From NCBI GenBank assembly GCA_963702895.1, contig OY969767.1:1696001-1760000 (forward strand): DNA of 64,000 nt. The letters are read 5' to 3'. Origin of the DNA: an uncultured Elusimicrobia bacterium (GTDB lineage: Bacteria; Elusimicrobiota; Elusimicrobia; 2-01-FULL-59-12). A program made the translations under genes and the position numbers. Position 1 is the first letter of the stretch. Each line of letters opens with the position of its first letter. The notes beneath the pieces are model-generated. The model was not told the DNA's origin. It ran no database searches and saw only the letters and a program-made list of their open reading frames with translations. Below are positions 16,331 through 49,296 of the stretch, one piece after another.

Positions 16331-19027
16331 ATGATCTGCCTGGATACTTTCAAATGCCGCCAGACACTCCCGATCGACGGTAAACCCTTTGAAATCTTCA
16401 GCTTGGCGGCCTTCTCCAAAACGACGGGGATGGATCTTCACCGGCTGCCCTATTCGCTCCGGATCCTCCTCGAAAATCTCATCCGCCATGAAGACGGCCG
16501 CTTTGTCAAAGCGGACGACATCAAGGCGCTCGCGATGCGGGACAAAGATCACGAAATCGCCTTCTCTCCGGCACGCGTGCTGATGCAGGACTTTACGGGG
16601 GTTCCGGCCATCGTGGACCTGGCCGCCATGCGCGATGCCATGAAAGCGCTGGGCGGCAATCCTGAAAGAATTAATCCGCTTGTTCCGGTGGACCTGGTGA
16701 TTGATCACTCGGTGCAGGTCGATCAATTCGGCGACGGAGGGTCCTTCGCCCATAACACAAGCCTGGACTATGAGCGCAACCGCGAGCGCTACGCGTTCCT
16801 GCGCTGGGGGCAGAAAGCCTTTCACGATTTCCGTGTGGTTCCTCCTGGGGCCGGCATCTGCCACCAAGTCAATTTGGAATACCTTGCCGGCGTTGTGATC
16901 GCCCGAAAAATCAACGGAGCGCTTTGGGCTTTCCCGGACACGCTCGTGGGCACAGATTCGCATACCGTCATGATCAACGGGCTGGGCGTGCTCGGCTGGG
17001 GCGTGGGCGGCATTGAAGCCGAAGCCGCCATGCTGGGCCAGCCTAGCTCGATGCTTATTCCGGAAGTGCTTGGCGTTAAGCTAAGCGGCCGTATGAGGGA
17101 GGGCACAACGGCCACCGATGCGGTCCTCACCATCACGGAGAGGCTGCGGAAAAAAGGTGTCGTAGGAAAGTTTGTCGAGTTTTTCGGGCCCGGCATGGCG
17201 GGCCTTCCTGTGGCCGACCGCGCGACCATCGGCAATATGGCGCCCGAATATGGTGCCACCATGGGATTTTTCCCGGTGGATGCTCAGACCTTGCGGTACC
17301 TGGAACTGACCCATCGGTCGGCTGAACAAATCAAGCTGATCGAGACCTATCTCAAAGCCCAAGGTCTCTTCCGGACAGACGAGTCTTTCGAGCCACAGTT
17401 CTCCGACACTCTCGAGCTTGATCTTTCCACGGTGGAACCTTCCGTGGCCGGTCCCAAGCGCCCTCAAGACCGGGTCGCTTTGAAGAACGTGAAAACCTCC
17501 TGGGCCTCTTCTCTTCCCCCACTCCTTGAGAAGAAGGCGAAGAATGACGGCACTCCCACACGGATACCCGCCGACGCCAAAGCCCATGTCTCGCATCAAG
17601 GGTTCAGCTACGACCTCACGCATGGCTCTGTCGTCATCGCGGCGATCACCAGCTGTACGAACACCTCCAATCCTTCGGTCATGATCGGAGCGGGCCTCGT
17701 CGCCAAACATGCTGTGGAAAAGGGTCTCCAGCGTAAACCTTGGGTCAAAACGAGCCTGGCGCCGGGCTCCAAAGTGGTGACGAACTACCTGGAGGCCACG
17801 GGACTCCAGAAATACTTGGACCAGCTTGGCTTTAACCTGGTGGGCTATGGATGCACCACCTGTATTGGCAACTCCGGGCCACTGCCAGAACCGGTCAGCA
17901 AAGCCGTGAAAGAAAAAGATCTTGTCGTTTCAGCCGTTCTTTCCGGAAACCGGAATTTTGAAGGGCGCGTGAATTCCCAGGTCAGAGCGAATTATTTGGC
18001 CTCCCCCCCGCTGGTGGTCGCTTATGCGCTGGCGGGTCATATGGACTTCGATCCCTACACCGATCCTCTTGGAACTGGAAAGGACGGAAAACAGCTGTAT
18101 TTAAAAGATATTTGGCCTACCTCGAAAGAAGTGCAAGAAGCTGTCGGCCAGGTCAACCGGGGTATGTACGCAAAAGAATACCGTGTGATCTTTGATGGGG
18201 ATGATCGGTGGAAAGCCCTCCCTTCACCTACCGGGCAGCTCTTTCACTGGGATTCCACTTCCACGTATGTCAAAAATCCCCCCTATTTTGAAAACATTCA
18301 GAAGAAACCAGCCGCTCTGCTCGACATCCAGAACGCCCGGGTGCTCGCGGTGCTGGGGGATTCGGTCACAACCGACCATATCTCGCCAGCGGGTTCGATC
18401 CCCCAAGACAGCCCAGCCGGACAATATCTCTTGGGGCGCGGCGTTGTCCCGAAGGATTTCAATTCCTACGGCGCGCGCCGCGGCAACGATGAGGTCATGG
18501 TCCGTGGGACTTTCGGCAATATCCGTTTGAAAAACCTTCTCGCTCCCGGCACCGAGGGCGGCTACACCGTCCATCTGCCAGAGAAGTCCCCCACCACGAT
18601 CTTTGAGGCTTCCAGGACGTATAAGAAGGACAACGTTCCGCTTCTGGTCATCGCCGGCAAGGAATACGGTTCAGGCTCGAGCCGTGATTGGGCCGCCAAA
18701 GGTCCCGCCCTCTTGGGGGTCAAGGCCGTCATCGCAGAAAGCTACGAGAGAATTCACCGCTCGAACCTGGTGGGGATGGGCATTTTGCCTCTGCAGTTTA
18801 AGACGGGAGAGTCTCGAGAGTCGCTGGGATTAACCGGCGAAGAACTCTACGCGATCGACGGCATCGCTCGGGATCTGAAGCCGAAAAAAGAGGTCCAGGT
18901 CAAAGTGGTGGATGCGTCAGGCAAGGCCCGCACCTTCCACGCCGTCGTTCGCATTGACACCCCTGAAGAAGTGGAATATTACCGCCATGGCGGAATCTTA
19001 CCCTACGTTTTACGGCAGCTGGTTTAA
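16331..19027 (+). CDS. acnA: Aconitate hydratase A
   Basis: [57 protein letters not shown]. Confidence 0.97.
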
Positions 19028-19238
19028 GGCTCGTCACCCCGGCGCGTCGTTAGCCGGGGTCCATCATGATAGATTCCGGCCCGCCACACTGCCAGGCGGG
19101 CCGTCCTCCAAAGCTACAGTGGCGGACGGAATACTTCCTTAGGTCCTAAGACAACTTCTCCCAGAATGGTCATCCCGGCATGCCGTAAGCCGGGATCCAT
19201 AAATACCAACGATAGACCCCGGCTTTCGCCTATTAGAC

Positions 19239-19415
19239 TTTTCTCGAGTCTTTGTAGACTCTAGAAGAAGACACCGACAAGAATGGAATAAGTCTAACTT
19301 TCGCCAAGGTGAAAACCATACCCCGGTAAAGACCCCATTCTTTCGTGATCCAAAGCTAGATAGAAGTGATGTCATAAAAACCCTTAATAGGCAAAGCTCG
19401 CATCACGAATGTCGG
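19239..19415 (+). ncRNA. IS110 bridge RNA (target-binding and donor-binding loops)
   Basis: 5' hairpin 19239-19269; guides CTTTCGCC (19298), ACCCCGG (19320), ATAGAAGT (19360) and TAATAGG (19385) match the target and donor junctions. Confidence 0.8.
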
Positions 19416-19435
19416 CACTTACAAAAAGGAGCCTT

Positions 19436-20461
19436 ATGAACCCACCTCTCCATTACATAGGCGTTGATATCGCCGATCAAACCTTCAGCGCAACACATTA
19501 CAGCTCAGCCGAACAAAAGTATTCCAAACATCAGACGCTCGCCAATACACCCGCCGGCTTTGAGGAATTCGAAGCCTGGTTTAAGAAACGCGGAGTCGAT
19601 TCCACCAATACCGTGGTCTGCATGGAAGCCACCGGTGTTTATGCGGAGCAGCTCTGCTACTGGCTCTGTGCCAAAGGCTATCCGGTGTCGGTGGAGGCGC
19701 CGCATAAAACCAAACGCGCCTTTCACCCCCTGGGAGCCAAAAGCGACCCCATCGATAGCCGCCAGCTCGCCGAATATGCCTGGCGCTTTTTCGATCAACT
19801 CGCGTTCTGGAAACCCTCGGAAGCCTTGATCGAACAAGTCCGTGTTCTTCTGACGACGCGCGAGCAGCTGACCGGCCAGATGACCGCCAATCAAAATGCC
19901 TTGTCGGCCATCAGCCGGAAAGTCGTTCGCACGATCCTCGCCGAACAAAGCTTCCTGGACACCATCCGCCATCTCAAAGAACAGATCAAAAAAATCGATC
20001 AGGCCTTGGATCAACTGATCTCAAACCACCCCACCATTGGCCCCATGGTGAGCTTGCTGCTCACCATCCCTGGGGTGGGCCGACTCTTGACGGCCCATTT
20101 GATGGTCATCAGCCAAGGCTTTACGCGATCCCTGGAACCCCGCCGCATCGCCTCGTATTTGGGCATGTGCCCACTCGAACACTCCAGCGGAACTTCCGTG
20201 CGCAAGAATGCAAGCTCTCGCGGGATCGGTCCGGACATCATCCGCAAGCTATTGCACCTGGCAGCCCGATCCCTTCGCACACATCATCAGCAGTTCAGGC
20301 ACTACTTTGAAAGAAAAGTACAAGCCGGAAAAGCCAAACGCTTGGCGCTCAACAACATTGCCAACAAACTCTTGCGCATTATCTGTGCCGTACTGCGCAC
20401 AAAGTCACCGTATCTTGCTGACTATAGGTCAGTCAATCCTCGGATCCTAAAAAATGCTTGA
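19436..20461 (+). CDS. IS110 DEDD recombinase/transposase
   Basis: YIGVDIA, CMEATG, KSDPIDS (DEDD), IPGVG, HSSG (catalytic Ser region); RBS AAGGAG. Confidence 0.95.
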   Translation: MNPPLHYIGVDIADQTFSATHYSSAEQKYSKHQTLANTPAGFEEFEAWFKKRGVDSTNTVVCMEATGVYAEQLCYWLCAKGYPVSVEAPHKTKRAFHPLGAKSDPIDSRQLAEYAWRFFDQLAFWKPSEALIEQVRVLLTTREQLTGQMTANQNALSAISRKVVRTILAEQSFLDTIRHLKEQIKKIDQALDQLISNHPTIGPMVSLLLTIPGVGRLLTAHLMVISQGFTRSLEPRRIASYLGMCPLEHSSGTSVRKNASSRGIGPDIIRKLLHLAARSLRTHHQQFRHYFERKVQAGKAKRLALNNIANKLLRIICAVLRTKSPYLADYRSVNPRILKNA

Positions 20462-20504
20462 CCGAGGTCATAGAAATCGGGGTGACGGCCTAAATACTTC
20501 TCGG

Positions 20505-21689
20505 CTAATTCAAGTCGTTGCTGGAAGGGGCGGTTTTGGACGGGATCTGATCGAGCGCCTCGGCGTAGCGAATGTTCTTCACGGAGTAGCTGGTTGAATT
20601 GAGCATCCCACCGGAAGGCGTGTCAAACCATACGCGCTCCTCCAAGCCATCGTAATGGTTGAATTTGCCGACGAAGACTTTCCCTTTGCGTAAGGTGAGG
20701 CGAAGGGGTGCGCCTTTTTTTTGGGCCTCAAAAAACTGGACGAGCTCGGAGTGCTTGCTTTCCTTTTGCGACGCCTGCGCCTGGCCCAATTTCGCAAAAA
20801 GCGAATTCCCCTGGACAGCGGCTTTGAGCGTGATGGGGAGGTTGGGTGTTTCCTTGAGATAGATCAAGCCATCCGCCACGGTCCCCATTTGGTAGGTCGA
20901 GGGCCACAGGGACTCGGTGGCCAGGTATTGGGCGTTGGCTTCGGCATACTGAGGATCGGACGTCGCCAGCTTCCCGGTGACGCCTCGGTCGCACTGTTCC
21001 TCTGGCACCGTGATCACATTGGGGAGAAGCTCATAAGCGTCCATCGTGTCCTTGCGCTTCTTCTTCAGAGATAAAAGATGCGCCCCCTTGTCCCCGTAAA
21101 GAAAGCACATCACATCCTTCGGCGAGAGAAGGGGAAGGGCTTTGCCGGTATTTTCAAACGCGGAAAAGATCTGGGGTCCGATCTGGAGGCCCTGGTCCGT
21201 ATTATTGGACAGCCGCACGCGGAGGAAAACAATCCCTTTATCGATGATGCCGGAGGCCGTCATCGCGTACGGACCTTGGAAAACAGTCACCGATTCATTG
21301 CCGGCAGCCGTCACGCCGGGCTTTTCCCATCCCGTGAGATCACAGACCGTCCCGAGGCGTGGCCTGCCTTTGTTGAGCTGCACTTTGACGTGACGGCTTT
21401 GACCGTCTTGTTGAACGATTTCAATGTCGGAGTCTTCCGGCGCTGCCGTGATGATGTCCGGCAGCAAAGAAGCGTTCTCAGGAACCTGACCGTTGACAGA
21501 GCGGAGCACTTCCCCGACCATGATTCCCGCTTTGGAGGCAGGCGAATCTTTGATGACACTGATGATCTGGCAGGTCTCGGGGGCCTTGGTGGGTTTGGAG
21601 ATCGGGCTCAGGCGCCTGATTTCCGGCGCGCTCGAAGCGCAACCGGTCAGCGCTGCCAAAAAGATGAACCCTGCGAGTAAGCGAAGCAC
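20505..21689 (-). CDS. PDZ-domain lipoprotein
   Basis: Lipobox LTGC; 'VIKDSPASKAGIMVGEVLRSVNGQ' PDZ signature. Confidence 0.75.
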   Translation of the reverse strand: MLRLLAGFIFLAALTGCASSAPEIRRLSPISKPTKAPETCQIISVIKDSPASKAGIMVGEVLRSVNGQVPENASLLPDIITAAPEDSDIEIVQQDGQSRHVKVQLNKGRPRLGTVCDLTGWEKPGVTAAGNESVTVFQGPYAMTASGIIDKGIVFLRVRLSNNTDQGLQIGPQIFSAFENTGKALPLLSPKDVMCFLYGDKGAHLLSLKKKRKDTMDAYELLPNVITVPEEQCDRGVTGKLATSDPQYAEANAQYLATESLWPSTYQMGTVADGLIYLKETPNLPITLKAAVQGNSLFAKLGQAQASQKESKHSELVQFFEAQKKGAPLRLTLRKGKVFVGKFNHYDGLEERVWFDTPSGGMLNSTSYSVKNIRYAEALDQIPSKTAPSSNDLN

Positions 21690-26785: not shown

Positions 26786-26966
26786 TAACTTGTCTCACTC
26801 TTGATGTCATCCCGGCGGATTGTAAGCCGGGATCCATCATGATAGACCCCGGGTCTCCACAAGCCCGGCGACCCTCCGCCACACGACAGGCGGAGAGCGC
26901 CGGGTGTGTGGCGCTCGGCCCGCCGGACGTCTGGAGGGCCGGCTTTCGCCGGGGTGACGCCTTTAT

Positions 26967-49206: not shown

Positions 49207-49296
49207 CCGTCACCCCGGCGAAAGCCGGGGTCTATCAAATTTTCAAATGATGGATCCCCCACTTACAGCCGTGGGGGATGACGGTTGGACAACAAT

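Follow-up and report, generated by a model that had tools for sequence, protein, structure and literature searches.

The closest described system to the element reported here is IS621 (PMC11208160; PMC11208158; PMC13626964). As presented in the parts of these papers that we draw on, it combines a recombinase carrying a DEDD motif and a catalytic serine with an RNA in which a target loop is followed by a donor loop, a left target guide (LTG) of 9 nt, a left donor guide (LDG) of 8 nt, right guides for target and donor (RTG and RDG), handshake pairs at position 7, a promoter formed at the circle junction and a REP palindrome as target. Cleavage falls after position 9 in its top strands and between 9* and 10* in its bottom strands (PMC11208158); we read the latter site as lying between top-strand positions 6 and 5. 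In the product, the bottom strand is described as unligated and mismatched beside the core (PMC13626964). Durrant et al. (PMC11208160) called cores as repeats present at both ends and, in the available part of their paper, altered them in both partners together only. In the corresponding part of their report, Siddiquee et al. see no true duplication, one copy of the repeat belonging to the element.

Two other described systems resemble the present element. ISCro4/IS622 has, like it, 14-nt donor and target sequences and handshake guides; unlike it, the cores covered in the available part of the report are CT or GT, and site pairs were filtered for identical cores (Perry et al., 10.1101/2025.05.14.653916). 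ISPpu10 and ISPpu9 of Pseudomonas putida are also IS110 elements that occupy one position in REP palindromes and show natural wobbles between guide and DNA, the core of ISPpu10 being CT, unlike that of our element (10.64898/2026.03.19.712850, in the part used here). Targeting of REPs by IS110 elements has long been known from IS621 (PMC11208160) and ISPpu10 (10.64898/2026.03.19.712850), precedents for which we dropped REP targeting as a new trait.

The window analysed here, a stretch of 64,000 nucleotides from an uncultured Elusimicrobia bacterium, contains an IS110 element that shares with IS621 the type of recombinase, the REP target and, as predicted from its sequence, the RNA layout with its guide lengths and a putative junction promoter, including position-7 handshakes in the same register. 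It differs from IS621 at the core: position 9 is C in the clade of the element and T almost invariantly in the described IS621 orthologues, and the CC and TC found here contrast with a core that is described for IS621 as invariant and always paired (PMC13626964). A basal stem enclosing both RNA loops and a CGTC-tagged REP also set the element against IS621. To our knowledge, the IS621 RNA has no basal stem around both loops. On account of its unequal core, we file the element as a variant that works like IS621 and not as an IS621 orthologue.

An IS110 element in CGTC-tagged REP palindromes

The element is 1,248 bp long (Table 1) and encodes a recombinase of 341 aa in which the DEDD motif and the catalytic serine are intact. 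Its non-coding left end covers 205 nt before the start codon and its right end 17 nt after the stop codon, the layout of the IS110 group. The recombinase matches the Pfam families PF01548 (78.7 bits, cut-off 29) and PF02371 (62 bits, cut-off 21.3) and the NCBIfam family NF033542 (193.5, cut-off 140). Both the N-terminal DEDD domain and the C-terminal domain with the catalytic serine are present, and the five residues given in Table 1 are invariant in 50/50 aligned proteins. The best PDB match is 8wt6 (IS621, E 3.5e-28), followed by 9t56 (ISCro4, E 1.7e-26), and IS621 and ISCro4 were the only solved relatives recovered at E up to 0.001. A first-pass annotation of this DNA had called the recombinase compact; its size is in fact ordinary, the IS621 chain in the PDB having 328 aa, and an unusually small protein was dropped as a feature. 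Residues H274 and R278 (window 20255-20269) align with the positions of the IS621 hydrophobic wedge, at which Y is found in 38/50 and M in 29/50 of the relatives, the two closest relatives keeping H and R.

The genome carries five copies of the element with 100% identity across 1,250 bp, a sign of recent movement. From its sequence, the element is very probably an intact, autonomous and recently active IS110 member of the IS621 type, and its REP targeting, junction promoter and size are ordinary for IS621-like elements. In the window, it sits between convergent genes, an aconitase-like ORF ending at 19027 and a minus-strand ORF ending at 20505, and a cluster of REP-like palindromes surrounds the insertion (window 19027-19230). 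The same genome also contains three copies of a second, IS621-like IS110 type (G000:C1 near 130612, 1125879 and 180035, the last in reverse), with a CT core matched at both ends and a different palindromic repeat, which provide an in-genome example of a standard core. Five IS1111-like elements (G000:C1 near 417210, 646154, 672048, 2232383 and 2428033) have a short left end, a long right end and sub-terminal inverted repeats, and at least three of them adjoin the same CGTC REPs.

All five copies lie at the same bond of the CGTC-tagged REP palindrome, as expected from the first-pass annotation. Their left flanks share 12 bases ending in CC (5/5), their right flank reads GGGGTGACG, and the last two bases of the element are TC. 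The palindrome that serves as target is dispersed, has a CGTC tag, an 8-bp stem, a 4-nt loop and a CCA-like tail, and is present in many copies and in close inverted pairs. This fits the description of the CGTC-1 REP, which combines a CGTC tag, an 8-bp stem, a 4-nt loop and a short CCA-type tail and often occurs in inverted pairs (Di Nocera et al. 2013, PMC3733652, in the part used here). The CGTC-1 REP corresponds to the host target and is separate from the element; the available part of that paper reports no dedicated transposase and does not mention IS110. A search for a REP-associated Y1 transposase gave one marginal partial match.

Of the 161 empty perfect-stem REPs of the genome, the left guide matches 69 and the right guide 79; in 36, both guides match. 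The location of 5/5 insertions in the class matching both guides has P = 0.0008 (left alone 0.016, right alone 0.031), a value that depends on how the REP family is drawn (0.0006 with 171 looser sites). The core reads CC in 149/161 and TC in 2/161 of these empty REPs, and all five occupied sites keep G1, the hairpin partner of C8. The proposal that the REP may serve as a safe harbour agrees, as regards location, with the placement of all five copies between long flanking ORFs; 69/171 REPs fall inside six-frame ORFs against a background of 87%, a test too noisy to carry weight. Two further genomes of the class are rich in this REP core (50 copies in G096 and 13 in G353), of which the remaining 18 relatives searched have 0-4 copies.

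Table 1. Positions of the element, its target and its predicted RNA parts in the window
Feature	Position	Strand	Remark
Left REP hairpin part; 19222-19230 are target positions 1-9, with core CC at 19229-19230	19216..19230	+	12 flank bases the same in 5 copies
IS110 element, from right donor arm through donor core TC	19231..20478	+	5 identical genome copies
Right donor arm TATTA, donor positions 10-14	19231..19235	+	5/5 pairs with RDG 19385-19389
-10 half TAGACT of putative circle promoter	19234..19239	+	
Short 5' hairpin, transcribable part of a longer hairpin	19246..19261	+	Length of region not conserved
Predicted bridge RNA core, basal stem enclosing target- and donor-binding loops	19273..19415	+	Compensatory changes; expression predicted
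Left target guide (LTG); positions 2-9 match target, C19304 reads C8	19297..19305	+	
Right target guide (RTG) 19320-19326 and handshake bases 19327-19328	19320..19328	+	
Left donor guide (LDG), donor positions 1-8; G.T wobble at 7, U19367 reads T8	19360..19367	+	
Right donor guide (RDG) 19385-19391 and handshake bases 19392-19393	19385..19393	+	
IS110 recombinase gene, 341 aa	19436..20461	+	Invariant D11, E64, D104, D107, S251
-35 half TTGACC of putative junction promoter	20458..20463	+	Overlaps stop codon
Left donor arm (positions 1-7) and donor core TC (20477-20478)	20470..20478	+	Same in 5/5 copies
Right REP part: target positions 10-14 GGGGT and tag (CGTC on minus strand)	20479..20487	+	
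Empty REP, exact match to target guides, unused	26939..26958	+	Second at 49228, minus strand

Predicted bridge RNA, guides and putative junction promoter

A protein search recovered 1,157 relatives of the recombinase at E up to 1e-30, and 50 of the best were aligned for a metagenome scan that confirmed at least 503 stretches. The comparisons below concern 81 loci, i.e., the window and the best 80 of these at least 503 stretches (42-59% identity). Scaffold motifs allowed 72 loci to be parsed and left 9 unparsed; 62 of the parsed loci had both junctions and yielded 58 distinct guide sets. A stricter parser failed on 37/81 loci, and the guide results come from the looser scaffold-motif parser. 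Other collections gave little: a genome-collection scan with the single protein returned one weak unrelated match, 400 genomes of the phylum one match at 31%, and a plasmid search only matches of about 30%. Viral contigs gave two 28% matches and 121 chance motif matches, none of the latter with the protein or the full scaffold.

The left end of the element folds at -52.4 kcal/mol (z = -3.95), beating 200/200 shuffles. In a set of 46 RNAs, hand-chosen among the 72 parsed to thin near-copies, 17/23 consensus pairs show changes on both sides, and 95.5% of cells are paired, against 31-48% in slid controls. A basal stem pairing 19273-19278 with 19410-19415, overlooked in the first reading, encloses both loops and has at least 6 pairs in 65/68 cases among the matches listed (0/2000 permutations). 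An Rfam search found no match at E up to 5. The 5' hairpin had been placed at 19239-19269; it starts on the last base of the -10 half, and only its inner part may be included in a transcript started there (Table 1). The distance from the -10 half to the first loop ranges from 27 to 134 nt across the relatives among the matches listed, and the hairpin was dropped as a conserved part, since the length of this region varies.

The junctions, four guides, closing stems and promoter halves quoted in the first-pass annotation are all found where it placed them, with a left junction CTTTCG-CC/TATTAG at 19223-19236 and a right junction ATAGAAA-TC/GGGGT at 20470-20483 (the slash marks the junction). The right guides had been called one base too short: they extend to handshake position 7, where U19327 faces donor A7 and C19392 faces target G7. 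Among 20,000 random genomic 14-mers, 66 had their positions 2-9 in the left end and 2 also the reverse complement of their positions 8-14; with position left free, only these two equal the match of the real target, which indicates that the guide matches are not due to chance.

The guides also covary with the junctions among homologues. In the 58 distinct guide sets from the matches listed, identity of cognate versus non-cognate pairs was 6.22 versus 4.30 of 9 for the LTG, 4.62 versus 3.26 of 5 for the RTG, 7.47 versus 5.91 of 8 for the LDG and 4.50 versus 4.16 of 5 for the RDG. Covariation of each guide with its own junction was reached in 0/2000 permutations, a figure that is not a true probability because the relatives are kin and not independent. 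Two loops with compensatory changes and four guides that each covary with their junctions bear out the IS621-type bridge layout that had been proposed. Across the clade, LTG positions 1-4 are weak (0.33-0.53) and positions 5-9 strong (0.83-0.97) among the matches listed. At handshake position 7, the RTG base pairs with the donor in 54/58 sets and with the target in 5, and the RDG base pairs with the target in 51/58 and with the donor in 0, the pattern described for IS621 (PMC11208158, in the part used here); position 6 is mostly unpaired (all among the matches listed).

A near-identical left end (run X2, record 6; one contig, depth 2.4) aligns with window 19219-19395 with 7 differences in 177, and has LTG positions 1-5 changed yet the same REP flank. 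The A at LTG position 1 of our element was considered as a relic of a TC target and dropped, this position being loose in the clade. TGAC occupies right-flank positions 14-17 in 44/58 distinct guide sets from the matches listed, which suggests that insertion in most of the clade takes place four bases away from the tag of CGTC/TGTC-type repeats. One relative (L011:520-1830) shares with our element both the insertion bond and the REP type but lies on the opposite strand; its target is CC too.

Circularisation would bring the two promoter halves together with a spacer of 18 nt. TAGACT or TAGATT lies 17-18 nt from TTGA[CT] across the circle junction in 62/62 two-ended elements among the matches listed; these motifs partly served to locate the ends, with the spacing left free. 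This conservation agrees with the junction promoter proposed at first, which may drive the RNA. On the plus strand, a scan for linear promoters was negative, as it should be if the promoter forms at the junction, and the circle-junction 15-mer is absent from the genome assembly.

Target and donor cores

In 5/5 copies the target core is CC and the donor core TC; the identical core dinucleotide of IS621-type systems is thus absent from all five, and position 9 is the only shared core base. The first-pass annotation had listed a CC/TC core as a non-CT variant: both dinucleotides are present, but as two different cores, one of the target and one of the donor. In the numbering of IS621, with positions 1-9 to the left and 10-14 to the right, the target and donor of the window have C9 in common but not the bases at positions 6, 7 and 8, and a one-base shift of the register in either direction leaves no shared dinucleotide. 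The guides follow this difference. At position 8, the LTG has C and the LDG has U, while both right guides have G, which makes a G-C pair opposite the target and a G.T wobble opposite the donor. Thus, G19326 of the RTG starts out paired with target C8 and ends in a wobble with donor T8 after exchange, and G19391 of the RDG goes the other way, from a wobble with donor T8 to a pair with target C8. Exchange in the window takes position 7 from no pair to two Watson-Crick pairs and is neutral at position 8.

The main junction parser forced a TC donor; a separate unforced search found donor TC in 60/62 relatives among the matches listed. The left junction reads TC in 61/68 elements and CC in 7/68 (the window, L008, L011, L012, L036, L050 and L081; matches listed), the CC cases being single short contigs except for the five copies of the window's element. 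For L008 and L050, intact 14-mer copies of the target support a native C8, and hairpin symmetry does so for the window, L011 and L012; in L036 and L081 a native C8 is putative. To place the CC label on a tree of 68 proteins without a fixed root, at least 5 changes are required, each forced by branches with good support; some of these changes may be losses, and L050 and L081 are on long branches. Six elements (L027, L031, L039, L040 and L071 among them) have a left donor plus core of 10 bases, one T longer.

The right guides change together with the target at position 8. With donor T8 in all sets, RDG8 is A in 50/51 T8-target sets and in 0/7 C8-target sets (matches listed); four of the seven C8 sets have G here and the other three (L008, L011 and L012) a non-pairing U, which also occurs with a TC target in L009. 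RTG8 in the C8 sets is A in 5/7, pairing with the donor only after exchange, and G in 2. Hence, 7/7 of these sets allow RTG8 to pair with donor T8 once exchange has taken place, whereas 2/7 allow it to pair with target C8 beforehand. RDG9 is G in 58/58 sets and position 9 is C throughout the clade, among the matches listed.

Position 8 may therefore behave partly like a handshake position. The real novelty of this element is that its cores are unequal and its guides changed to suit, a combination that recurs in the clade. In the literature covered, chiefly passages of main texts, no natural element was described whose target and donor cores are unequal, although an earlier report is possible. 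A donor that owns TC fits the view of Siddiquee et al. that one copy of the core belongs to the element.

A proposed scheme of strand exchange with unequal cores

The general scheme, an IS621-type element from a clade with C at core position 9 and mostly CGTC/TGTC-tagged REP targets, appears well founded. Within it, circularisation would join TTGACC to TAGACT and drive a bridge RNA, as the conservation of the promoter halves suggests. As covariation shows, the target loop reads the REP and the donor loop the circle junction. By analogy with the IS621 structures, and in a manner that fits all junctions, the top strands would be cut after position 9 and then exchanged. The left guides would read C8 and T8 separately, and the G of both right guides would pair with C8 and wobble with T8, such that position 8 would cost nothing on exchange while position 7 would gain two Watson-Crick handshake pairs. 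The mismatched bottom strands would probably be repaired from the top strand, giving every copy a left CC and a right TC. The unligated, mismatched bottom strand of the IS621 product makes such a repair route available, and a mismatch at position 8 would merely lengthen an existing mismatch from two bases to three. The effective core would then be one base pair. On the strength of sequence comparison, we give about even credence to the proposal that the clade (at least 503 metagenome stretches) recombines around the single shared C9, with position 8 as a third handshake retuned at each shift from a TC to a CC target.

An apparent mismatch could result from a misread register or from a change after insertion, the true core being shared through another crossover or through a rare TC REP later converted to CC. 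The shared C9 means that junctions alone cannot separate a cut between 8 and 9 from one between 9 and 10, and the two empty REPs that read TC offer a possible source for conversion. Against both stand the agreement of all five copies, each with G1 kept, the different bases of LTG and LDG at position 8, the position-7 handshakes in the IS621 register (54 and 51 of 58 sets, matches listed) and the lack of a shared dinucleotide after a one-base shift; this explanation is largely refuted and highly improbable. It is also conceivable, though rather unlikely, that only the top strand is inserted, a Holliday junction or single-strand product being finished by replication or repair, which would make core identity irrelevant. 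At positions 6-8, 10/10 junctions of the genome have the bases of the top strand, and the available part of one preprint reports single-stranded circles from IS621 excision, in agreement with such a route; yet the IS621 structures, as described in the part of PMC11208158 used here, include bottom-strand cleavage, and nick-directed repair would yield the same junctions.

A looser reading of an ordinary two-base core is possible but doubtful. Position 8 would be tolerated passively, as a C/T transition close to a G.T wobble, and would have no handshake role; the guide changes would represent drift or binding before exchange only, an account that we regard as having a minority chance and under which the element would still be a working bridge system. 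The neutral net pairing at position 8 in the window agrees with passive tolerance, as does the first core base of IS621, described as less conserved in the part of the literature used here. The non-pairing U at RDG8 in three of the seven CC sets and in one TC set (L009) favours it as well, and means for the handshake proposal that part of the pattern may be plain looseness. Passive tolerance accounts poorly, however, for the absence of A at RDG8 with a C8 target (0/7), where A could have paired with the T8 present in every donor, for the A kept at RTG8 in 5/7, which pairs only after exchange, and for the recurrence of the position-8 shift in separate branches. The general scheme has difficulties of its own: LTG positions 1-4 are weak, the run X2 left end lies in the same flank with LTG 1-5 changed, and H274 and R278 depart from the Y and M that prevail in the clade at the wedge positions. 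A change from a CT to a GT core is a transversion, and the guides in the IS621 case are not adapted to it. CT and GT cores block cross-reaction in IS621, a sign that a first-base mismatch is not freely tolerated there (10.64898/2026.04.29.721476, in the part used here).

These elements bear on the use of bridge systems for editing, as described in the available parts of the reports concerned: designs pair sites with identical cores (10.1101/2025.05.14.653916), the preference for CT counts among the stated constraints, and cross-reaction between guides is avoided by means of orthogonal cores (10.64898/2026.04.29.721476). A natural element with unequal cores that has moved repeatedly, with its guides adjusted, offers a test of whether a common core is needed for strand exchange or for guide pairing only, and its clade is a source of recombinases with C9 cores. 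Callers that define cores as end repeats may misplace such elements by one base. If the proposed scheme is true and transferable to engineered systems, target and donor would need no common core dinucleotide; a C9 core would then be available beside CT and GT, and position 8 would act as a dial between insertion and excision.
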